Shown here: positions 2-14,121 of the stretch, piece by piece
Numbering within the stretch: position 1 is the first letter of the stretch
How the letters are laid out: every line of letters starts with the position of its first letter
Assembly: GCA_965215185.1 (NCBI GenBank)
Contig: OZ244034.1
Coordinates: 2,880,001-2,944,000 of the forward strand
DNA: 64,000 nt
Direction: 5' to 3'
Source of the DNA: Acidimicrobiia bacterium
GTDB lineage: Bacteria; Actinomycetota; Acidimicrobiia; Spongiisociales; ZC4RG35
The notes under the pieces: generated by a model
What the model saw: the letters and a program-made list of their open reading frames with translations, nothing else
Database searches by the model: none
What the model was told of the DNA's origin: nothing
Made by a program: the position numbers and the translations under genes

Positions 2-3000
2 GGCCTCACCCAGTACGGCGCCAAAGGGATGGCGCAGCAGGGCTACACCTCCACCCAGATTCTCGAGCATTTCTACCAGGGATCATCTGTTGAGAACCTT
101 GCCGACGCCATACCCGGCTCCTGGGTGGTCACCGAGTCGATGCCGATCTGGGTGGGTATCAGACAGAATCGCACCGAGTTCACCTTCGTGGTCAGCACCG
201 GGCGAGTGAAAGTCTGCTTCGACGACGATTACAACTCCTATCCGTTGTTGGCGGCCGGGTCAGCGCCGGATCGTGATAACACTTTCACCGATCTCCTGCT
301 CAACAGGTTGGCCGATCTGGGGTACTTGCAGGGGGCGCCCGGGACTTTCAACGAGACGGTGCGGGAAGCGGTGATCTCCTTTCAGGCCGCCCAGGGTCTG
401 GAGGCGGACGGGGCGGTGGGCGGCCAAACCTGGCAGACCCTTGTGCAGGGAAGCGGTTTGTCCGATTGCGCCGGCGCCTATTACCTGAACAGTGGGGAGG
501 AGCTGGTAGTGACCGCCGAGGGGGACGGGTCCTGCTCCACCAATCTGGTGGGAGTGGCCGGGCAGTGCCGATTGAGCATTCAGGATCTCTCGCACGACAA
601 CCGGGTTGGTCTGCGGGGCCTCAATTACGCGGGTGAGATGACGCAGTTCATCCATGGTCACATACGAATACGCTCCAGCGGCGCAAGGATGCACTTTTCG
701 TTGCAACTGGACATAGAGGACTATGTGGCGGGCATCGCCGAGATCCCCACCTCCTGGATGGATGTGGCTTTGGAAGCCCAGGCCATAGCGGCCCGGTCCT
801 ATGCCATTTACGGCATGCTGAGACGGGGTTCGGAGACATCTTTCAGTAGCTCTCGGAAATCGGCTTGCTGGTGCCATGTTGTAAGCGACACGCGTGATCA
901 GGTATACGCCGGATGGAACAGGGAGATACAAGACGGCGGCCGGTGGGAGATGGTGGGAGCGCGTCCGACGGCCGGCCGGGTGGTGACCCATCCCGAGGAG
1001 GAAGTGACGGTTGTTCAGGCTTTCTACTCGTCCTCCAGCGGCGGGGCCACCGAAGATTCCTCCGCGCTTTGGGGTACCGCCGGGAGGCCCTATCTGGTCT
1101 CGGTGGAGGATCCGTGGTCGATTGACCCCAATGTGAACCCCAACGCCTTCTGGTCGAGTAGCCTCTCGCTCTCCCGTTTGCTTACAACCTATGGCTTGGC
1201 TGGCCAGTTCGATGATGTCATCTCGGTCAGCACGGTTCCTTACCCGTGGGGCAGCGCCCAGTTTGTGACGGTGGTCGGAATCAAGGGGGGAAGCAGGGTA
1301 ACCGAAAGGGCCTCGGCCTCGACTTTAAGGTCCTCTCTGCGGTTGAGGTCGAAGTACTTTGAGATCGACTATCTGGCCGACTGGTGGGCCCCGCCCCCGG
1401 CGCCCACCGGGGTGGCTGTAACAGGTGGGGCGGCAGCCACGGTGAGTTGGGACCCGGTTCCTTCGCGCTTTGCTCCAGAGAGCTACACGGTGACCGCTAA
1501 TCCCTCCCACGCCGATCCGATCACGGTAGGCGGTTCCCAGACCAGCGCAGTGTTCGGGGGCCTTCGTGCGGGAGTGGATTACAGCTTCACAGTGACGGCC
1601 ACCAATCAGATAGGAACCAGTCCATCCTCGGCAGCGACCGCTCCCAGGGTGGTGATCGCTGAGAATCCTTATCCCGGTGAGCCACTTCGGGAAGGGAGCC
1701 GAGGCGAGACGGTTCGGGTGTGGCAGGAGGCTCTCGGGATTGGGGCGGATGGTGACTTCGGCCCGGGGACCAGCGCCGCAACCCGCCAGTGGCAGCAGGC
1801 CAACGGTCTGGTCGCCGACGGGATCGTGGGGGAGGAGTCCTGGAACAAGATGTTCTCCTCGCCTCCATCCACCGAGACTCCGGAAGAGACGGAGACCGGG
1901 GGTGAGACTGAGACGGAACCCGAAACAGAGACCGAGGAAACCGAGCCTGAGGAGACCGAATCAGACGTTCCCAGCTACCCGGGCTTCCTGTTGAGGGTTG
2001 GTAGCCAGGGCAAGTGGGTGAGGACCTGGCAGTCCGCCCTGGGTCTGTTCTCCGACGGCTATTTCGGGTCGGACACAGCCCAGGCCACCCGAGAGTGGCA
2101 ACGGGCCAATGGTCTGGAGCCCGACGGGATAGTTGGCATGAAGAGTTGGCAGACCATGTTCCCCGGCGCCGGGGTGGAACGACCTACGCCTCCACCTGCC
2201 ATCGGAGATGACGGCGAGGATCCAACCGACGACGGCACGGAGTCCACGGGGAGCGACGGCGCCGATACCGGTGCCCGCCCGGGAGTCCCCTCCTTTCCGG
2301 GCAGCCCTCTCAAGTTGGGATCACAGGGCCTCGACGTAATCGTCTGGCAGCGGGCTTTGGGAATCGCGGCAGATGGATACTTCGGCCCGGCAACGCTGTC
2401 CGCCACCAAGGCTTGGCAGTACCGCCAAAACCTGATGGCCGATGGAGTGGTAGGCCTCGATTCCTGGCTGAAGATGTTCCCCGGCGCAGGTGTGAAGGAG
2501 GGTGGTTCCTCCGCGCCCGAGGAAAGCGATAATGACAGTGCGGCTGAAGAGGCGCCTCCCTATCCCGGCCGGCCCCTGAGAACAGGATCGCGAGGCGCCG
2601 ATGTTGTGATTTGGCAACGGGCGCTGGGCATTGCAGCCGACGGCTACTTCGGGTCCCAGACCGACCGGGCCACCAGGAACTGGCAACGGGCCAAGGGTCT
2701 TGACGCCGACGGGATTGTTGGTCTCACCTCCTGGCAGAGGATGTTCTCGGGAGCGGGCCAGGCGGGTTCTACGGTAAGCCGGCCATCATCGGTGTTACTG
2801 GAATTGGGGAGCACCGGAGAGATGGTGGAGAAGTGGCAGAGGGCTTTGGGGATCGATGTGACTGGTGTGTTTGATGACAATACGGTGGCGCATACCAAGT
2901 ATTGGCAGCGTACTCAGGGGATCGCCGCCGACGGCAGAGTCACCGAAACGTCTTGGGCTCGCATGTTCCCAGAAGAAGACGTGCCTGAAGGTGACGACCG

Positions 3001-3262
3001 ACCGTCCGGTTCCGACGACTCCTCCACCGACGGCGCCGGAGATACTCAACCGCCGGAACGCCCGCACTTGGAAGTTCTGGAATTGGGGAGCACCGGGGAC
3101 AGAGTGGAGAAGTGGCAGAGGGCTTTGGGGATCGATGTGACTGGTGTGTTTGATGACAATACGGTGGCGCATACCAAGTATTGGCAGCGTACTCAGGGGA
3201 TCGCCGCCGACGGCAGAGTCACCGAAACATCTTGGTACCGTATGTTTCCTGATGAGGAATGA
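2..3262 (+). CDS. SpoIID/LytB-domain peptidoglycan hydrolase with FN3 and ~7 peptidoglycan-binding domains (5'-partial)
   Basis: Frame is open from base 2 (GLTQYGAKGMAQQGY..ILEHFY, a SpoIID motif). Also EDYVAGIAE, ALEAQAIAARSYA, DQVY, FYSSSSGGATE and LRSKYF. FN3 repeat; repeated LxxGSxG..WQxALG..DG.FG..T..WQ...GL.ADG.VG..SW PGBD units. Confidence 0.85.
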   Translation, partial: GLTQYGAKGMAQQGYTSTQILEHFYQGSSVENLADAIPGSWVVTESMPIWVGIRQNRTEFTFVVSTGRVKVCFDDDYNSYPLLAAGSAPDRDNTFTDLLLNRLADLGYLQGAPGTFNETVREAVISFQAAQGLEADGAVGGQTWQTLVQGSGLSDCAGAYYLNSGEELVVTAEGDGSCSTNLVGVAGQCRLSIQDLSHDNRVGLRGLNYAGEMTQFIHGHIRIRSSGARMHFSLQLDIEDYVAGIAEIPTSWMDVALEAQAIAARSYAIYGMLRRGSETSFSSSRKSACWCHVVSDTRDQVYAGWNREIQDGGRWEMVGARPTAGRVVTHPEEEVTVVQAFYSSSSGGATEDSSALWGTAGRPYLVSVEDPWSIDPNVNPNAFWSSSLSLSRLLTTYGLAGQFDDVISVSTVPYPWGSAQFVTVVGIKGGSRVTERASASTLRSSLRLRSKYFEIDYLADWWAPPPAPTGVAVTGGAAATVSWDPVPSRFAPESYTVTANPSHADPITVGGSQTSAVFGGLRAGVDYSFTVTATNQIGTSPSSAATAPRVVIAENPYPGEPLREGSRGETVRVWQEALGIGADGDFGPGTSAATRQWQQANGLVADGIVGEESWNKMFSSPPSTETPEETETGGETETEPETETEETEPEETESDVPSYPGFLLRVGSQGKWVRTWQSALGLFSDGYFGSDTAQATREWQRANGLEPDGIVGMKSWQTMFPGAGVERPTPPPAIGDDGEDPTDDGTESTGSDGADTGARPGVPSFPGSPLKLGSQGLDVIVWQRALGIAADGYFGPATLSATKAWQYRQNLMADGVVGLDSWLKMFPGAGVKEGGSSAPEESDNDSAAEEAPPYPGRPLRTGSRGADVVIWQRALGIAADGYFGSQTDRATRNWQRAKGLDADGIVGLTSWQRMFSGAGQAGSTVSRPSSVLLELGSTGEMVEKWQRALGIDVTGVFDDNTVAHTKYWQRTQGIAADGRVTETSWARMFPEEDVPEGDDRPSGSDDSSTDGAGDTQPPERPHLEVLELGSTGDRVEKWQRALGIDVTGVFDDNTVAHTKYWQRTQGIAADGRVTETSWYRMFPDEE
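2798..3235 (+). repeat. Near-identical ~159-bp direct repeat (2798-2956 and 3077-3235) encoding the last two PGBDs
   Basis: Both copies read CTGGAATTGGGGAGCACCGG...CACCGAAAC.TCTTGG with a 279-bp offset and only a few mismatches. Confidence 0.95.
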
Positions 3263-6526: not shown

Positions 6527-9500
6527 TTAGTTGGGTTGGGGGATGAAGGAGGTGTTGCCGGGTCCCCAGATGTGAGGTCGGATGGCTACTCCGTTGATGA
6601 ACACCGCAGCCTCGGCGCGGGTGGCGTCCCGGTCGGGACAGAATAGATCGGGTCCGCAACCGGGCACGACCTGGAAATCGGTTAACCACGCGGCGCTGAC
6701 CGCGTAAAAGGCATCGATTTCGATGTCAGTATGAGAAGGTACCGTTCCGATGTAATCGGCTTCGGTGTGCCGGTATAGCAGGGTGGCCATCTGTCCGCGG
6801 GTGACGGACTGGGTGGGGCAGAAGCGCCAGTCGGGGTCGCCGAATTCGCCTGGGGTGCATCCTCGGGTTACTCCGTTGGCGACCGCCCAGCCGATCGGTT
6901 CTTCGGCGTACACCCCTTGGCGTACGTCGGTGAAGGCTTCGGATCCCAGGTACGGCGGGGCTGGTTGTCCGGCTGCTCGCCATAGGAAGGTGACGAATTG
7001 TTGCCGGGTGAGGTTGGCGTCGGGGCAGAACATGGTGGTAGTGCATCCTCGGGTTACTTCGTGGAGGATCATCCACGACACCGCCGATTCGTACCAGACT
7101 CCAGCCGGAACATCGGTGAACAGTTCAGAAGCTCCCGGCGGAAGTTCATCACCACCACCCTCATCAAAACCTCCACCTCCACCACCCCCTCCACCTCCCC
7201 CTCCACCGCCTCCACCACCTCCACCACCTCCACCACCTCCACCACCTCCACCACCTCGGATGGTTACGGTAACGGTCCCCACGATTTGCCCGTTATGTTC
7301 GGCTTCGATAACGATCGTCTCGGTGGATTCCGTCTGACTGTCGGTCAGGGCTGTGATCGTTGCGGCCCCTGAGGTTTCCCCGCCGGAAATAGTGATTGCG
7401 GGAGGGGTGATTGTGTAGTCGACTCCCTCTATTGCGGAACCCCCGATTACCCGGAGGGTCACAGTTTGGTCTCCGGGAAAGGTACGGGCGTTCCCGGTTG
7501 TTGCGGTTAGGGTGGCCCTTGAACCTTCGCTGATCTGTGAAGGCGCCACGGATAGAGTGATCTCGGGCACCGGGTCGTTGGTGACTGCATCTGCACTCTT
7601 GTTGGGTCCCTCCCTATCGTCATAGGTGGCAACGGCCCGTAGATAGTGGTCTTGGTCGTCGGTTGTCGGTGTGTAGGTGTGGGATGTGGCGCCGTCAATC
7701 AGGGTCCCGTTGGCAAACCGGCTGAGTGAACGTCGCCAGGACCAGGTGAGATCGGACACTCCGCCGTCGGGATCTTCCAGTTCAGCCTTGAGGGGGCGTC
7801 CTACCTGTGGTGGGTCCGAGGGCAGGGTGACGGTTCCGTCCTCGTCCAGGTTCTCGATGTTGACAGTGACCGTGATGGTGTCTGACAACCCGGATAGATC
7901 AGTGGCGGTGACTCTTACCGTGTATCGGCTCCGTTGCTCGAAGTCCGGTTCCGTCTTGGTTCGGAGTTGACCGGTTGAGTCATTGATATCCAGCAGCGTG
8001 GCGTGAGAGCCGCTGAGGGTGTAGGTCAGCCGGTCGTTGTTGTCCGGGTCGTCTGATTCCACTGGCAGGCCGATATCCATGCCCGGTGGGGTGTTCTCTT
8101 CGATGCTGCGGACGCCTGTTTCCGAGAGTGGGAAGTCCGGTGCTCGGTTACTGACCGGTTTGGCCTGTACTCGGTTGTCCGAGACGATCTCGAGAGGCTT
8201 GACGGTGCCGTGGTCGGTGTAGGACACCGAGACTCGGAGATATTTGCCGACATCTGCGGCTACCGGTCGGTAGGAGTTTGATGCAGCGCCGTCGACAAGC
8301 AACCAGGGGCCGTTGCGGTTGGTGGAACTGTGCCACTCCCAGGTAGCTGCAGTGACGCCGTCGGGATCGATCAACGTGGCAGTCAACCGGCTGTCCTCTT
8401 GGGGCTGGTCCGTTGACAGGGTGAAGGACTCCTCCTCGTTTTCGTTGGTAACGTTCACGGTGACATCGATGCCTTTGGTAATTGCTCCGTCGGAGGCTTC
8501 GACCGTTACCAGATAGGTGTTGTCCCGGTTGGCGTCGGCCGGGTTCTCATAGTCGGGCGGGGCGGAGAAGTGCAGCCCTCCATTTTCGTCTATGGTGAAG
8601 TCACCGCTATCGGGGCCGGCCGGCTTCCAGGTGAAGCTGTCGTGGTTCTCCGGATCCATTACGCTATACCCAGCTACTTCTACGGTGCCGTTCTCCGTGT
8701 AATCGATATCGGTTTGACCGATGACCTCATGGGCTTCGTTCTGGTTGGTCACCGTGACTGTGATATCCAAGCTGCCGTCATCGTTTCCATCGGAGGCGAC
8801 AACTGTGATCTCATAGGTGTTATCCCCGTCGTCATCGCGCCGTACTTCGAAGTCGGGTGGAGATCGGAAGCTCGGGGAAAACACGTTGTTTGTCAAGACA
8901 AAATCAAAAAGAGCGTCGTCGGGTCCAGTTATGTCCCAGTTTTGGATCGGTTCACGTTCTGGGTCTGTCGCGCTATAGGTACCGATCGGCCGATCGCCGT
9001 TCTCGGTATAGAAGACGGTGGTCTGTCCGGTCACAATCGGCTTCTCGTCAACATCAAGTACCTTGATGGCAACGTCGATGGTGTCATCGATGCGAGTGTC
9101 GGTTACATCGTGTATGTTCTTCTGGTCGCTGACCCTCACCCCTACCGAATAGTTGTCCCGCGTATCTGCGTCCAGTGACGTTCCGACGTCCACCGAGATC
9201 TGTCCGGTGGCGGTATCCAAATCAAAGAATCGGGAGTCGGTGCCCGTGAGGGAGTAGGTCAGGGTATCACCATCAGTGTCTATCGCCTCGACGGGTAAGC
9301 CGACAAGGGCTTCAGCGGGAGAATTCTCTTCGATCTCCCTGTCTGCGTCGTCACCTTCTTCGAAGTAGGGATCGACGTTGAGGACCGGCGTGCCCTCCTT
9401 GGTTGCCGACCACGGCCCGTCACCCTCGCTGTTTTTCGCCCGTAGCTGAACATCGTACTTCTTATTCGTCTCCAGACTTGTGATTGTGTACTCCCGGGCC

Positions 9501-12500
9501 GTCCCGCCGCCAGCGTTCTCGGTGGTCCAGTTGCTGTCGGACTTGTCCGAAGCATGGCTTGTGATGTAGCGGACTTCGTACCCGCTGATCGAAGCCGTGC
9601 CAGTGTTTGACGGGACGTCCCATTTGACCTTGAGAGAGGTGTCGCTGGAGACAATCGATTTGATGGTTGCCTCACCGGGGGCGTTCCGGTGGCCGTAGAC
9701 GGTGAGACTCCAATTCCGCAATCGGCTTGTTGAACCCCCGGAGTAGCGATCGGTGATGTGGAGTTTCCAATCGCCCGCGGGGTCTTCTCCCAAGTGCCTG
9801 GCTGAGCCAAAACGGTAGCTGCCGTTGAGTGCGCAACTGACCTCAAAGATGTCGAGATAGCGAGCGCAGTTCCCCGGGGAGTAGGGCACGGACAAAGTGG
9901 AGAAATCACCTGACGGAGATTCCAGTCTCACCTCCAGGTTCCTGAAGTCAGGAGCGGAGAAATTGGTGTTGATTTCCACGAATTCGACGAACTGCACTTC
10001 AGAACCCATGGTGATGGTGCTCGTCACGGTTGTGTCATTGTCGGGTATGGTCAGCGACCCCCCTGTGGAATTTGCCGTTTCCTGGGCGAACTCGGGGAGA
10101 TTGGTCCAACTGGAGGGGTTTGCCAAGTCCACTGCCGCCTTGGCGTCTACTACTCCGAAGCCATATTCGTGGTTGAAGCTGTAATTTCCAGTCGAGCCGT
10201 ATTTGGATGCCCCCTCTTCCCAGCCGCCGTTGGCCGAGTCGTTCTTGCGGGCCGAAGCGGCCAAAATGAGCTTCACGTCCCGCCAGGTCAGATCGGTGTT
10301 GGCGGCGCGAATCAGAGCAACTACCCCCGCCACCGCGGGAGCCGCCGAAGAGGTGCCGCCGAACGAGTTGATGTAAGCGTTGTAATTGGTGGTGGTGGTG
10401 ATACCGGGGCGGTCGCCGTAATCGTTCGAAGGACCGCACACCCACAGGTTGGCGCCTTGCTCCGAGTAGGCGGACCGCTCGCCAAGGTTGTTCACCGCGC
10501 ACACCGCGGTCACTCCGTAGTAATTAACAATCTCTTCGAGGTTCGAATTGTCACCTTTTCGACCTCCGTTGCCGGCCGCCCACACATAGAACACGCCTTT
10601 GCCTCCCAGACCTTGCGTGATTCCTAACTTCACCGCTTCTTCCCAGCCTTCGTGGATACGATCTACTCCAGGCCCGTCCAGAGAACCCCAACTGTTGGTG
10701 TTGACATGGGTGGTCTCCATTTCACGGATCGCGGCATCTGTGATGTTTACATTGGTGCCTTTTCGAAGGATGTTGTACGCATATATCTTGGCCCGCGGCG
10801 CTACTCCTCTACCCCCCAGGCTGTTGTCCCGCGCTGCAATGACACCCGCTACGTTGGTGCCGTGGGAGTTGTCATAGTAGAACACTTCATCGCCACCCCG
10901 GTAGTCATGGTTGAGGCTGGTGTTTACGTTGGGCTTTAAGTCGTCATGCTCGTAATCCAAACCGTTGTCAACCACCGCCACATTGATTCCTGCGCCCATG
11001 TTTCCGCCGGTCCATACATCTAAAACGTTGATGTCTTCCCCCGCTGTGCCGTTCAACTGGCCGGTGTTATCGAGGTGCCACTGGCATCCGTACAGGGGAT
11101 CGTCGAAGGAGGCGCTTATTGCCGAGCATTCGGTCACAGTGTTCTGATGACTTGTGTCCTCGATCATTTGGATGGTGTAGGGACCCGTTCCCACATCGTC
11201 GGCAATGTCGACCTTCATGTAATAGGTGCCGGCCCCCAAGCGGGTCCGTAGGCTAAAACCCTTTCCGCCCTCTGAGAAAAGGTCTTCGTAGATGTCCGCA
11301 GCTACCTCGGTGCCTCCGCTATCAAGCAGAGCCCCATCGATATCAACCGATCTACTCAGGGCTCGGAAGAAGATGTAGGTGCTCTCGGTGGTAACTATTT
11401 TGAAATAGTCCGAATCGGTTGAGGGATCCATTCTGCCCCCTCTTATGAACGATCGAGGGCTTGGATCGCCGAACTCCAAGGGGACCGCGTCCGAAAGTGT
11501 GTTTCCTGGTTCTGTGACCGTTTCAACGTGGATCGTGTATAGACCGGTAACTGCTCTGCCAGATCGTCGGGAGTGTGGGAACGACTCGACTTTGATGTAG
11601 TACACGCCGGCTGCCAGTTTGGCGCGGATGAGGAATTGCTTACTGGATAGGAGATCTCCATCATCGTTGTCCTTGATCTTCCTACTACGGCTGTCCAGTA
11701 GTTCTCCCACCGTGTCGTAGATCTGACCTGTGCTGCGTATGACGAGGTCGGTTTCTTCTTCCAGCTCTATCTTGAAGTAATCAACGTCGCCTCGCGGTGT
11801 CAATATGCCGTTCTCGAAGCTGCCAGGTGCTATTTCCTGGGCATTTCCTGTGCCGGTGGTTTCCGGGATCGTCTTGGTGCGCAAAACAAAGGGTCCGGTG
11901 GTGCTGTTTTCGTAACTGGTGACTTGGATGTAATATATTCCAGCTCCCAGATTCGCCGTGAGCAGGAAGTTCAATGGCCCATGGGAAAGACGACCGTCGT
12001 CATTGGAGCCCAGACTGTTGCCGTCTTTATCAAAGATCTCCCCACGGGTGTCGAGGTCACCGTAGGTGAAGATTAGAAACTGGGTCCTTTCCCTGAGGAC
12101 AAATTTGAAAAAGTCCTTGTCTGTTGCCGGATCGATCTTGCCCCCCATCCGGATGTCGAGTGGCAGGTCGGTGGCTGTCTGGAGGGTGTCGCCGTGCTCC
12201 TTCGGTGTGCCCGTTGCGGTGGCCGACCAAAGGCCGTCGGTTGTGGCCACTGCCCGTATCTGGACGTCATATACCGTGCCGTTAGTCAGACCGGCCAGCA
12301 CGTACTCTCTCCTACCGGATGTCCAGATATCTTCTTCTTCGGTCCAGTTGGTGGCAGAGGATTCCTTATAGCGAAGATCGTATGCGGTGATGTTTGCTTC
12401 TTCGAGGTCCGTGGGAACCTCCCAGGTGACGGTGAGAGCCTCGTCACCGGGGGTGATAGATGGTTCGTTGGGTTCGGGTTTCCCGGTGGAGGTAGCCGAC

Positions 12501-12844
12501 CAAGCCCCGTCTTCAGTGGTGTAAGCACGGATCTGGATGTCGTATTCCGTGTCGTTGGCCAAGCCGGTGAGCACATACCTCAAAGCGCCGGCGCCGGGGG
12601 TCCAAATGGTCCCTTGCGGCATCGGCATCCATTTGTCATCGGATTTATCCGTGGCGTCACTCTCTATGTAGCGAAGGTGGTAGGCGGTGATGCCGGTCAC
12701 CCCGGTGGGTGCGGTCCATTCGATGATGAGCGCCTGGTGGAAGGGGGTGATCGAATCGATAGTCGGTGGGCCGGGGCTCTGCGCCCAAACTTCGCCGGGG
12801 GCCACCAGTAGACACATCAGCGCGCAAATCAATCCATAACGCAT
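6527..12844 (-). CDS. Giant secreted kexin/furin-like S8 serine protease: signal peptide, 2 FN3, 3 PPC-like, S8, P-domain, FN3, cadherin-like/Ig repeats, poly-Gly, C-terminal SLH domains
   Basis: Signal peptide MRYGLICALMCLLVAPGEVWAQ. Catalytic motifs VVDNG, SHGTNVAG, AAGNGG and GTSSAAP. LTWRDVKLILA and FNHEYGFGVVDA are kexin-like. P-domain EFVEI..GDWKLHITD; cadherin DYE/DFE and DPD motifs; SLH FCPDANLTRQQ, TRGQMA and TRAEAA. Confidence 0.9.
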   Translation of the reverse strand: MRYGLICALMCLLVAPGEVWAQSPGPPTIDSITPFHQALIIEWTAPTGVTGITAYHLRYIESDATDKSDDKWMPMPQGTIWTPGAGALRYVLTGLANDTEYDIQIRAYTTEDGAWSATSTGKPEPNEPSITPGDEALTVTWEVPTDLEEANITAYDLRYKESSATNWTEEEDIWTSGRREYVLAGLTNGTVYDVQIRAVATTDGLWSATATGTPKEHGDTLQTATDLPLDIRMGGKIDPATDKDFFKFVLRERTQFLIFTYGDLDTRGEIFDKDGNSLGSNDDGRLSHGPLNFLLTANLGAGIYYIQVTSYENSTTGPFVLRTKTIPETTGTGNAQEIAPGSFENGILTPRGDVDYFKIELEEETDLVIRSTGQIYDTVGELLDSRSRKIKDNDDGDLLSSKQFLIRAKLAAGVYYIKVESFPHSRRSGRAVTGLYTIHVETVTEPGNTLSDAVPLEFGDPSPRSFIRGGRMDPSTDSDYFKIVTTESTYIFFRALSRSVDIDGALLDSGGTEVAADIYEDLFSEGGKGFSLRTRLGAGTYYMKVDIADDVGTGPYTIQMIEDTSHQNTVTECSAISASFDDPLYGCQWHLDNTGQLNGTAGEDINVLDVWTGGNMGAGINVAVVDNGLDYEHDDLKPNVNTSLNHDYRGGDEVFYYDNSHGTNVAGVIAARDNSLGGRGVAPRAKIYAYNILRKGTNVNITDAAIREMETTHVNTNSWGSLDGPGVDRIHEGWEEAVKLGITQGLGGKGVFYVWAAGNGGRKGDNSNLEEIVNYYGVTAVCAVNNLGERSAYSEQGANLWVCGPSNDYGDRPGITTTTNYNAYINSFGGTSSAAPAVAGVVALIRAANTDLTWRDVKLILAASARKNDSANGGWEEGASKYGSTGNYSFNHEYGFGVVDAKAAVDLANPSSWTNLPEFAQETANSTGGSLTIPDNDTTVTSTITMGSEVQFVEFVEINTNFSAPDFRNLEVRLESPSGDFSTLSVPYSPGNCARYLDIFEVSCALNGSYRFGSARHLGEDPAGDWKLHITDRYSGGSTSRLRNWSLTVYGHRNAPGEATIKSIVSSDTSLKVKWDVPSNTGTASISGYEVRYITSHASDKSDSNWTTENAGGGTAREYTITSLETNKKYDVQLRAKNSEGDGPWSATKEGTPVLNVDPYFEEGDDADREIEENSPAEALVGLPVEAIDTDGDTLTYSLTGTDSRFFDLDTATGQISVDVGTSLDADTRDNYSVGVRVSDQKNIHDVTDTRIDDTIDVAIKVLDVDEKPIVTGQTTVFYTENGDRPIGTYSATDPEREPIQNWDITGPDDALFDFVLTNNVFSPSFRSPPDFEVRRDDDGDNTYEITVVASDGNDDGSLDITVTVTNQNEAHEVIGQTDIDYTENGTVEVAGYSVMDPENHDSFTWKPAGPDSGDFTIDENGGLHFSAPPDYENPADANRDNTYLVTVEASDGAITKGIDVTVNVTNENEEESFTLSTDQPQEDSRLTATLIDPDGVTAATWEWHSSTNRNGPWLLVDGAASNSYRPVAADVGKYLRVSVSYTDHGTVKPLEIVSDNRVQAKPVSNRAPDFPLSETGVRSIEENTPPGMDIGLPVESDDPDNNDRLTYTLSGSHATLLDINDSTGQLRTKTEPDFEQRSRYTVRVTATDLSGLSDTITVTVNIENLDEDGTVTLPSDPPQVGRPLKAELEDPDGGVSDLTWSWRRSLSRFANGTLIDGATSHTYTPTTDDQDHYLRAVATYDDREGPNKSADAVTNDPVPEITLSVAPSQISEGSRATLTATTGNARTFPGDQTVTLRVIGGSAIEGVDYTITPPAITISGGETSGAATITALTDSQTESTETIVIEAEHNGQIVGTVTVTIRGGGGGGGGGGGGGGGGGGGGGGGGGGGGGFDEGGGDELPPGASELFTDVPAGVWYESAVSWMILHEVTRGCTTTMFCPDANLTRQQFVTFLWRAAGQPAPPYLGSEAFTDVRQGVYAEEPIGWAVANGVTRGCTPGEFGDPDWRFCPTQSVTRGQMATLLYRHTEADYIGTVPSHTDIEIDAFYAVSAAWLTDFQVVPGCGPDLFCPDRDATRAEAAVFINGVAIRPHIWGPGNTSFIPQPN
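7169..7255 (-). repeat. Poly-glycine tract (29 Gly codons) linking the stalk to the SLH anchor
   Basis: 87 bp of GGN codons, mostly GGT/GGA, between R and F. Confidence 0.95.
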
Positions 12845-12891
12845 TGATTTCAACGAGTGCCTCCCCAGGTGGACCCCTTCAAGACGCGGCC

Positions 12892-13842
12892 CTACTTGGT
12901 GGCTCTTTCCGTCCACCAGTTAGGACTTGAAAACACCACGCCATCCTGACCTGCAAGCGCGTTCGCCAGTTCCAAAGACGGGAAACCCGGTTCGGTCTCG
13001 ATGAAGAAGCCGTTCGGAAGCCATTCCAGTTCCGACACCTGGTCCAAGGTGATCTGGTTGGTGGCGAAAAAGGCGTCGGTGTCGGTTTGGCTCCACTCTG
13101 GATCAAGAGCCAGCAACACGCCTCCGGGCAGTGTCATCAACGCCCCGGAATCCGAGCGAAATACCGGCAGTCCATCGCTCTGGGTACTCCCGCTGGAACC
13201 CTGCTGTCCCCGAACTACGCTTCCCGCCCCGGTGTCGGCTATGACTTCGTCGCTGGGGAGGGTGGCGCCGTCCTCTCGCACTGTCAGATCCGGTTGTAGC
13301 GTCGCCTCCAACGTTCGGTCACCGTCCTGCCAGGAGTAGGTGGGGCCTTTGGAGGAACCGGGACTGTCTACAGGTTGGTCGCTGATGTGCGCCGGTTCTT
13401 CTTGTCCTTCTCCCGGGCTCTCGGCCTTCTCCGCGGAACTGCCATCGGAATCGACCGACAAAACAGTGTCGCTTGAGATCGTCTCGGATACTCCAGGGTT
13501 TTCCTCACCGGTGTACGTCTCGGCTCTGGATGTGGCAGTGGGGGCAGTAGTCGGTGGGGATTCGCCGGAAGCCACGGAGTGACTTGTAGAGGTTGTGCCC
13601 TTTTCTGGCAGCGGCGCATCGGGTGGGAGAAGCTCAATCGCATCACTCGAGGTCGTGGATGCGGGCTCAGCGACCAAGGCGGTTGGTCCCTGTTCGGTGG
13701 CCGAAACCGTGTCCTCGGTGGTGGCCGGGGATGTAAGGGACTGGACTGAAGAGGCGGGCATGTCGTCGCGCTCTAGCACCCAGAGGCCAATTGCCACCAA
13801 GGCAATGGCCACGATGACCAATAGGACCATTAGCCTTTTCAT
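12892..13842 (-). CDS. N-terminally anchored protein with a Ser/Thr/Pro/Glu linker and a C-terminal subtilase-prodomain-like domain (candidate trans-acting chaperone/inhibitor)
   Basis: RBS AGGAAG; MKRLMVLLVIVAIALVAIGLWVL hydrophobic N-terminus. C-terminal PVFRSDSGALMTLPGGVLLAL...SLELANALAGQDGVVFSSPNWWTERATK resembles S8 prodomains. Ends 47 bp before the protease start. Confidence 0.7.
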   Translation of the reverse strand: MKRLMVLLVIVAIALVAIGLWVLERDDMPASSVQSLTSPATTEDTVSATEQGPTALVAEPASTTSSDAIELLPPDAPLPEKGTTSTSHSVASGESPPTTAPTATSRAETYTGEENPGVSETISSDTVLSVDSDGSSAEKAESPGEGQEEPAHISDQPVDSPGSSKGPTYSWQDGDRTLEATLQPDLTVREDGATLPSDEVIADTGAGSVVRGQQGSSGSTQSDGLPVFRSDSGALMTLPGGVLLALDPEWSQTDTDAFFATNQITLDQVSELEWLPNGFFIETEPGFPSLELANALAGQDGVVFSSPNWWTERATK

Positions 13843-14121
13843 GTCACTTCCTGGCGGAGCGGGAACTCCAAATGGGCGATGCGAGGTAAAAGATGATATT
13901 AGGTTGGAGTATCGCAAAATCTGCGGAAGCCATGGTGAGGGCATCTCATAGGTGAGGCCGTGGTCGGAAGGCCTGTGACAGGGAGTCAAACAGGGTTAGG
14001 TCACAGGAACCCATGAGGCATGGAGCCTTGGCTGTGGAAGGAAACGTCGAACGAGACCTCCCTGGCTGCTTATTCTGGTGACTGGGTATGAAGGAAGTGC
14101 AGAGGCAGAGAGAGGCCTTGC

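Follow-up and report, generated by a model that had tools for sequence, protein, structure and literature searches.

The question raised by this locus is whether a giant surface subtilase can have its propeptide encoded by a separate gene. The stretch analysed (the window) comprised 64,000 nucleotides of an Acidimicrobiia bacterium genome (GenBank assembly GCA_965215185.1, contig OZ244034.1, positions 2,880,001 to 2,944,000 of the forward strand), and the element in question was a pair of genes on its minus strand: one for a kexin-like protease and, directly upstream, one for a smaller protein, here called the partner. An earlier reading made without database searches (the sequence-only reading) had proposed that the protease has no prodomain and that the partner is a membrane-tethered chaperone or inhibitor acting in trans. 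The model for this was ASP of Aeromonas sobria. ASP is reported to be a propeptide-less kexin-like protease that requires the product of an adjacent gene, ORF2, for maturation; ORF2 inhibits ASP with a half-maximal inhibitory concentration of 84 nM and reaches the catalytic centre with the Lys at its C-terminus (PMC5638518). From the results below, the two genes of the window probably form one functional unit, in which a propeptide-less, SLH-anchored kexin-like protease is served by a membrane-tethered, prodomain-like partner that acts in trans as ORF2 does.

The protease and its missing prodomain

The protease open reading frame (ORF) spans 6527–12916 on the minus strand; from the likely start, ATG at 12844 (MRYGLICALMCLLVAPGEVWAQ), the coding region is 6527–12844 and the product has 2105 aa. 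Its parts follow in the order signal peptide, two FN3 domains, three PPC-like repeats, kexin-like S8 domain with P domain, adhesin repeats, poly-Gly and SLH. In Pfam searches, Peptidase_S8 was matched at residues 617–897 (E 6.4e-39) and P_proprotein (PF01483) directly C-terminal to the catalytic domain at 954–1048 (E 1.6e-11; 44.6 bits, cut-off 21), together with fn3 in three stretches, Cadherin, and SLH at 1909–1950. Matches to PPC at 353–421 (21.1 bits, cut-off 25.9) and to Calx-beta were sub-threshold, and the NCBIfam model FDP_fam scored 30.4 bits on the first PPC-like repeat, above its cut-off of 29.

In the numbering of the S8+P fragment, the catalytic residues D41, H76 and S247 and the oxyanion residue N174 stand in subtilase order, and all four are kept in 42 of 44 aligned rows. 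When the fragment was searched by sequence against the PDB, yeast kexin (E 8.4e-49) and furin (8.2e-42) were matched over residues 3–467 and ASP of Aeromonas (3hjr, 3wqb) nearly end to end (E 1.3e-38). Subtilisins matched far more weakly (about E 5e-22), with coverage of the catalytic core only (27–276). By the triad, the P domain and the closest solved relatives, the protease is, at the level of sequence, a kexin-like subtilase (MEROPS S8B type). Residues D138, D180 and E185 were mapped through the PDB alignment to what we take, from the numbering of kexin and furin, to be the acidic residues of their S1 pocket. An acidic residue stands at each of the three positions in 30/44 rows, and such an acidic putative pocket fits K or R at P1.

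Neither I9 nor any other prodomain family was found in the protease with Pfam or NCBIfam, and PF16470 and PF05922 gave no match. Residues 225–600 are three mutually alignable PPC-like repeats, the last of which runs into DPLYGCQWHL (...SFDDPLYGCQWHL). A model of residues 1–600 was made with AlphaFold2 from a 33-row alignment (mean predicted local distance difference test (pLDDT) score 84.4). It was all-beta from 28 to 562, with helices confined to the signal peptide and a short linker before the catalytic domain; no beta-alpha-beta-beta-alpha-beta unit was found in it, and an N-terminus built in this way leaves no room for one. PF05922 and PF16470 were also found in 0/120 of the closest S8+P homologues of 258–823 aa, among the matches listed. 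The protease is without an internal prodomain and lacks the N-terminal propeptide of the kexin/furin type. The sequence-only reading had recognised no prodomain in it, and Pfam, the alignment of the PPC repeats and the model of residues 1–600 agreed in showing no hidden one.

The partner family, its fixed tail and its linkage to S8 genes

The partner ORF spans 12892–13989 on the minus strand; its likely start, ATG at 13842 (MKRLMVLLVIVAIALVAIGLWVL), gives a protein of 316 aa encoded at 12892–13842, with the stop codon at 12892–12894. Its C-terminal region ends SSPNWWTERATK, and the C-terminus reads ...SLELANALAGQDGVVFSSPNWWTERATK up to the stop. Between 6000 and 14500 the minus strand showed no terminator-like site, hence none between the two genes. 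The coordinates and anatomy that had been given for both genes, with a 47-bp gap between them, were borne out in every particular by ORFs, translations and Pfam. No Pfam match was obtained for the partner, even at E ≤ 10.

Homologues were numerous. A word-seeded search at E ≤ 0.01 returned 1409 of near length (173–553 aa), and Pfam domains were absent from 120/120 of them, among the 120 of the 1409 listed. A hidden Markov model scan of 1.84 billion cluster representatives (50% identity) gave 1018 clusters at E ≤ 0.001, of which 684 reached E ≤ 1e-10; the best 150 of the 1018 matches were inspected, and the distant tail of the family might link to classical propeptides. The partner domain is a large unannotated family without a Pfam family. 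Conservation is limited to the last ~150 residues, with an unconserved linker region before them, and the domain has the invariant motifs Y..W.DGDRT, PVFRS..G.LMTLPGG and NGFF.ET.PGFPSL.LAN.LA...GV..SSPNW. Literature searches on a split subtilase prodomain or on the partner family returned nothing relevant in titles or abstracts.

Tails and N-termini were counted in 257 family proteins (P0003–P0122 and P0152–P0288), of which 246 have the domain at the C-terminus, five are extended or fused and six lack the motif. Standalone members stop exactly seven residues past PNW in 246/246 cases. The last residue is K in 152 and R in 63 (K or R in 215/246), then E (13), Q (7), N (6), S (2), Y (2) and D (1). 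The stop at a basic residue that had been noted for this partner, whose last residue is Lys316, is shared by most of these members and lies at a fixed distance from PNW. Covariation of the last tail residue with the putative S1 positions was uninformative, as the tails are nearly all K/R and proteins with tandem modules blur the pairing. N-termini of the 246 members were sorted by regular expressions, no predictor being used, into lipobox-like (99), hydrophobic (98) and neither (49), and the last class may include wrong starts.

Linkage was assessed in 81 related loci (one from a single-sequence search, the others the best 80 of 250 relatives from an alignment-based search), with the S8+P fragment of the window as tblastn query. 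An S8+P match starts no more than 2.8 kb downstream on the same strand in 78 of the 81 loci; in five of the 78 (L004, L008, L014, L058, L074) the S8 region is truncated or falls into more than one frame. In L048 the sole S8+P match lies 8.9 kb downstream, behind a giant PKD/trypsin-like protein, and L044 and L081 had no match. The window's own 3.12-Mb genome holds exactly one partner and one kexin-like S8+P gene. Because it recurs in 78/81 loci, the arrangement is far more than chance, and the expectation that homologues of the partner would be linked to S8 genes was confirmed by these loci and by natural fusions. By eye, 32 protease N-termini from split loci mostly had a signal-peptide-like hydrophobic start.

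A search restricted to 554–2000 aa gave 29 longer proteins with the partner domain, which were sorted by BLAST against both window fragments. In 15 of them the domain is followed in frame by PPC-like sequence and S8, without a second signal peptide (junctions, marked by a slash, ...PNWWREVEAK/TADDHGD and ...NWWREVGTR/QDPGE); five have the same start as the fused form and end before S8; in seven the domain forms the very end of a longer protein of FN3, LRR or cadherin type; one (P0143) joins it to a beta-lactamase-type domain; and one is a partial match. Single ORFs of at least 2946 aa in L022, L027 and L036 have the order signal peptide, FN3, partner domain, three PPC, S8, P and further sequence, and the cluster-library scan also brought up two giant fusions, of 3846 and 5724 aa. 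In most fusions K or R occupies the junction position, which corresponds to the stop point of the split proteins, as would be expected of the P1 position in an autoprocessing site.

Loci of the partner family were mostly labelled Dehalococcoidia, the others being Candidatus Spongiisociaceae (Acidimicrobiia), Candidatus Multivorans (Acidobacteriota) and Holophagales. At E ≤ 1e-10 the partner was found in 0/150 other sampled genomes of the class and 0/400 other sampled genomes of the phylum, that is, in the window's genome only. This patchy distribution across phyla, taken without a tree, suggests that the cassette spread horizontally. The transketolase of the window had its best matches (57–77% identity) in metagenome-assembled genomes (MAGs) of Acidimicrobiia, in agreement with the description of the system as actinobacterial, and a Dehalococcoidia host, which the labels of most related loci might suggest, was rejected.

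Predicted fold and complex, and how they are read

The partner domain was modelled with AlphaFold2 from a 50-row alignment (mean pLDDT 81.8, predicted template modelling score 0.75). The beta subdomain has strands at model residues 14–19, 22–35, 45–50, 53–57, 71–76 and 81–83, and is followed by a beta-alpha-beta-beta-alpha-beta unit at 88–153 with pLDDT above 90 (87–97 when counted from residue 85). In the model this unit is an open sandwich with the fold of S8 prodomains, though the fold is a common one. With Foldseek no PDB entry reached E ≤ 0.001; the furin-bound PC1/3 prodomain 9fid_D was matched with E 0.43, probability 0.96 and a template modelling score of 0.69 on the target. Structural alignment with VIA-align did not tell prodomains apart from other ferredoxin-like folds. 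Among the 50 structural matches listed, the ORF2 chain of 3wqb was absent, which is no evidence of a different fold. A PDB profile search with the partner alignment yielded a single chance match (11S globulin, E 6.5). Two leads came from the ESM Atlas, where the nearest cluster (score 0.93) has PF22148 on 11% of its members and a cluster with both PF22148 and PF18492 (ORF_2_N, named after the ORF2 of ASP) stands at rank 23 (score 0.88).

The complex was predicted from our own alignments (S8+P, 46 rows; partner, 50 rows). The interaction prediction score from aligned errors (ipSAE) was 0.92, 0.93 and 0.93 in three runs, against 0.16 for the best of three controls; the pass mark admits 116/157 solved complexes and 2/215 mismatched pairs, a calibration that is only rough here since our own alignments were used. 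The runs share at least 95% of contacts, and partner pLDDT was at least 83. On the protease side the predicted interface comprises 41–42, 64, 76, 108–114, 117–121, 133–156, 171–174, 245–247, 250 and 415–424, and so takes in D41, H76, N174 and S247, strands 108–114 and 133–139, and helices 117–121 and 141–156; on the partner side it comprises 19–24, 49–52, 75–80, 85–91, 118–126, 150 and 152–162. The pairs of lowest error are partner 153–157 with protease 110–114 and partner 159–161 with protease 133–137, with errors below 1 Å for the tail–strand pairs. In the modelled pose the tail runs as a strand flanked by both substrate-binding strands and reaches the catalytic residues with its end, and the sheet of the partner is predicted to pack on the two helices that hold classical propeptides. 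Those propeptides are held by two helices of the catalytic domain in the subtilisin–propeptide structures. The expectation that the terminal residues occupy S1–S4 is reproduced by the model, in which residues 152–162 lie against the catalytic residues and the substrate-binding strands. What the score indicates is likeness to subtilase–prodomain complexes, not binding of this particular pair.

If the two genes act as one unit in the manner of ASP and ORF2, the protease would be secreted, anchored through SLH and made without a propeptide, and the upstream gene would supply the propeptide function as a separate, membrane-tethered polypeptide. After export of both, the ferredoxin-like domain of the partner would pack against the two helices at the surface of the catalytic domain, the additional beta subdomain of the partner would touch both the catalytic and the P domain, and the fixed-length tail (...TERATK-COOH) would lie in the S4–S1 cleft with the carboxylate of the terminal Lys at the catalytic Ser. 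This geometry would be that of an already cleaved prodomain–enzyme product complex, and the partner would therefore be a temporary competitive inhibitor, probably also a folding template, and would keep the enzyme inactive at the membrane. Once the partner is released or degraded, active protease would be set free, still held on the cell wall by its SLH domains. The earlier proposal of a membrane-tethered chaperone or inhibitor in trans is in this sense supported as far as computation goes; the binding mode is modelled, and the proposed inhibition, the chaperone function and the sequence of events are inferred.

Several results weigh against this reading. I9 (PF05922), the S8 prodomain (PF16470), PF22148 and PF18492 were matched by 0/50 family members at E ≤ 10, and PF22148 gave no match in the window's genome. 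When the partner family was compared by hhalign with seven PF22148-type prodomains from S8 genes of Acidimicrobiia, the class of the window, the probability was 1.3% and E was 0.04, in what is a small comparison set. The 35 aligned columns did fall at the topologically equivalent beta3-alpha2-beta4-PN segment. The resemblance to the end of S8 prodomains remarked on earlier is this one, equivalent in position and not statistically significant; the model has the beta-alpha-beta-beta-alpha-beta unit, and no sequence membership in I9, S8 prodomains or ORF2 was found. Further, 31/246 tails end in neither K nor R, and in 14/44 rows at least one putative S1 residue is non-acidic although the tail is still basic. 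Fused relatives have two or three PPC domains between the partner domain and the catalytic domain, unlike classical propeptides, and within one chain the domain is not tied to S8 exclusively, as P0143 and the seven FN3, LRR or cadherin proteins demonstrate. The complex score, finally, may draw on the memory of the prediction model for the many solved subtilase–prodomain complexes.

The strongest competitor is a partner that serves solely as a dedicated inhibitor, immunity or latency factor, which would shield the cell's own surface proteins near the membrane and would be unneeded for folding. The same complex model, the tail constraint and the membrane tether fit it equally, many domains that fold independently lie on either side of the catalytic domain, and no computation here bears on folding. 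We nevertheless consider it unlikely, given that the strict 1:1 gene linkage and the fusions on the N-terminal side look like a zymogen arrangement and that propeptide-less subtilases are rare among those characterised, AspA being one of two such MEROPS holotypes according to a subtilase survey (PMC9549277). The one studied case, moreover, needs its partner for maturation (PMC5638518).

The top structural matches of the partner in VIA-align, which are the FtsX extracellular domain and Boca/Mesd and not prodomains, and the lack of sequence homology to prodomains would suit a membrane adaptor or tether, or an aid to secretion or sorting, built on a generic ferredoxin-like domain of the FtsX type and bound away from the active site, in which case the predicted pose would be an artefact. 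The giant protein downstream in L044 is of cadherin/FN3 type without S8 and that in L048 is PKD/trypsin-like, which is in keeping with such a role, as is the C-terminal position of the domain on FN3, LRR and cadherin proteins. An invariant seven-residue tail with K/R at its end is hard to explain without a role at an active site or in the reading of a carboxylate, however, the predicted interface contains all catalytic residues with tail–strand errors below 1 Å where controls reached 0.16 at most, and the protease already owns a signal peptide and an SLH anchor; this explanation is accordingly given very little weight. Least credible of all, at a level close to negligible, is that assembly or mutation produced the split as an artefact, leaving a single gene broken and without biology of its own. 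Fused forms do exist, and the five loci named above have frameshifted S8 regions. The split form is the rule, however, with 1409 standalone proteins of near length against the 29 longer ones in the 554–2000 aa range, the partner ends at a stop of its own that is fixed in place, and the 32 protease N-termini from split loci are mostly signal-peptide-like. The order of domains also differs between split and fused forms, FN3 preceding the partner domain in L027, and 98–100% of the sampled words of the window stretch were present in five runs of two studies, none of the runs listed being RNA.

A bolder version of the favoured two-gene reading is put forward tentatively, as a possibility somewhat short of even. 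The pairs may represent an undescribed and widespread class of 'pre-cleaved zymogen', in which the partner's stop codon lies exactly at the P1 of an ancestral autoprocessing site and the enzyme is born as a product complex without autocleavage. Activation would come by release from the membrane leash, the cassette would have passed among three or more phyla (it is carried by MAGs of Actinomycetota, Chloroflexota and Acidobacteriota), and the fused and split forms would be snapshots of fission or fusion.

Known counterparts, feature coordinates and further relatives

The kind of system is known, as an external prodomain-like partner of a propeptide-less kexin-like subtilase; what is new is a large, unannotated, membrane-tethered family with a fixed standalone stop. 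ASP–ORF2 was the only bacterial subtilase system with an external, separately encoded chaperone that literature searches found. Subtilases are the textbook case of the intramolecular chaperone. ORF2 is a soluble periplasmic protein of Gammaproteobacteria, whereas the partner here is anchored by a transmembrane segment or lipid, has a long disordered linker and occurs in Actinomycetota, Chloroflexota and Acidobacteriota MAGs. The two systems are alike in pairing a propeptide-less kexin-like S8+P protease with a small partner from an adjacent gene, the basic last residue of which (here Lys316, in the model) reaches the catalytic centre. They differ in the extra beta subdomain and the natural fused relatives of the partner, in the absence of PF18492 and PF22148 matches from 50 members of its family, and in gene order: orf2 is downstream of asp (PMC5638518), and the partner gene is upstream of its protease.

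With classical subtilase propeptides (PF05922, PF16470 and the Fervidolysin_NPro-like PF22148), the partner shares the beta-alpha-beta-beta-alpha-beta fold, the motif ...L..L....V..(A/S)(E/S)PN(Y/W) at an equivalent place and the existence of fused relatives, and its predicted packing on the same helices and strands with the tail in the substrate cleft corresponds to the canonical geometry of subtilisin–propeptide structures. It differs in being a separate gene with its own anchor, in size (~150 aa with the extra beta subdomain against ~75–80 aa), in the lack of significant sequence or profile similarity and in the two or three PPC domains that intervene in fused relatives. Free-standing I9 inhibitors (Pleurotus POIA1, PDB 1v5i, and yeast proteinase B inhibitor 2) are eukaryotic and cytosolic or vacuolar and, unlike the partner, are neither operon-linked to a propeptide-less protease nor membrane-tethered. 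Lipase-specific foldases (Lif) of Pseudomonas and Burkholderia are membrane-anchored steric chaperones encoded beside the secreted hydrolase that they activate; the likeness lies in the anchor and in the position next to a secreted hydrolase, and the differences in an all-helical unrelated fold, a lipase client and the absence of an active-site tail.

By the count of 1409 near-length homologues and 1018 clusters, the in-trans solution would be common in nature, and the split and fused forms amount to a natural experiment on detaching a folding catalyst from its client. If true, the reading would assign a role to the many hypothetical lipoproteins and membrane proteins that make up this large family, and would explain how giant adhesin-proteases with eukaryote-like domains (cadherin, FN3, LRR, spondin) are silenced until they are located at the surface.

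Table 1. Coordinates of features of the partner and protease genes in the window.
Feature	Position	Strand	Basis
Partner, N-terminal hydrophobic membrane anchor, residues about 5–23, no Cys; transmembrane or signal anchor, not a lipobox	13774..13830	-	translation
Partner, low-complexity S/T/A/E/P-rich linker, residues 28–154 (127 residues), unconserved in the family	13381..13761	-	composition; family alignment
Partner domain, N-terminal beta subdomain, model residues 14–83 (protein 168–237); predicted also to contact the protease	13132..13341	-	AlphaFold2 strands; interface residues 19–24, 49–52, 75–80
Partner domain, ferredoxin-like beta-alpha-beta-beta-alpha-beta unit, model residues 85–153 (protein 239–307), prodomain-like	12922..13128	-	AlphaFold2; VIA-align matches; family-invariant motifs
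Partner, C-terminal tail PNWWTERATK (NWWTERATK, residues 308–316), Lys directly before the stop	12895..12921	-	family tail counts; predicted active-site interface
Intergenic spacer of 47 bp, partner stop to protease start; GGGGAGG run 17 nt before ATG	12845..12891	-	sequence
Protease, signal peptide, residues 1–22, ...APGEVWA/Q	12779..12844	-	translation; helix 3–13 in AlphaFold2 model
Protease, two FN3 domains, residues 23–225	12170..12778	-	Pfam fn3, two stretches, E 3.5e-18; all-beta in AlphaFold2 model
Protease, three tandem PPC-like (pre-peptidase C-terminal-like) repeats, residues 230–585, abutting the catalytic domain	11090..12157	-	repeat alignment; PPC 20.7 and 24.0 bits (both below cut-off 25.9); all-beta in AlphaFold2 model
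Protease, kexin-like S8 catalytic and P domain, residues 586–1055	9680..11089	-	Pfam; PDB sequence search; residue conservation
Protease, adhesin-like region: FN3 1065–1148, cadherin-like repeats, Calx-beta-like 1762–1847	7256..9679	-	Pfam; Cadherin E 2.8e-22, Calx-beta below cut-off
Protease, run of 29 glycines, residues 1864–1892	7169..7255	-	composition
Protease, C-terminal SLH region (cell-wall anchoring)	6530..7168	-	Pfam SLH 1909–1950, 41.6 bits

The 29 consecutive Gly codons between the adhesin region and the SLH anchor are mixed (GGT, GGA, GGG and GGC). The partner gene is preceded by about 280 bp of non-coding DNA, and the flanking genes are housekeeping, with UDP-GlcNAc 2-epimerase upstream and transketolase beyond the downstream end. 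At 29–3262 on the plus strand, 3 kb from the protease gene, a protein of 1077 aa with five PG_binding_1 repeats, SpoIID and FN3 is encoded, which looks cell-wall-associated.

Some relatives had unusual architectures. P0143 (654 aa) has the partner domain at 104–250, followed by a beta-lactamase/transpeptidase-like serine hydrolase domain (PF00144). In P0125, P0126, P0128, P0130, P0136, P0145 and P0147 the partner domain is C-terminal and FN3, LRR or cadherin repeats at the N-terminus replace the disordered linker; some of these proteins end in ...STLY or ...VVPY, not in K/R. The gene after the partner in L044 (10923–18625) encodes a giant adhesin-like protein with six cadherin repeats, FN3 and a PepSY-like match, and that in L048 (10258–17204) a giant adhesin-like protein with PKD, Big_9 and a weak trypsin match; S8 was detectable in neither.

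Two tandem S8+P modules per giant ORF were present in L003, L011, L016, L023, L035, L041, L045, L062, L063 and L071, with S8 matches at about 12.1–12.3 kb and 15.1–15.5 kb. Where aligned, the first module has non-acidic putative S1 residues in L003, L011, L016, L035, L045, L062 and L063, and the aligned module of L011, in which the catalytic Asp and His are missing, may be a pseudo-protease. A further partner domain, as a second copy or a fragment, was found nearby in L030 (7953–8360), L069 (9843–10285) and L080 (1440–1895, minus strand); in L080 it belongs to a second, divergently oriented partner–S8 pair, with S8 at 1–462 on the minus strand.

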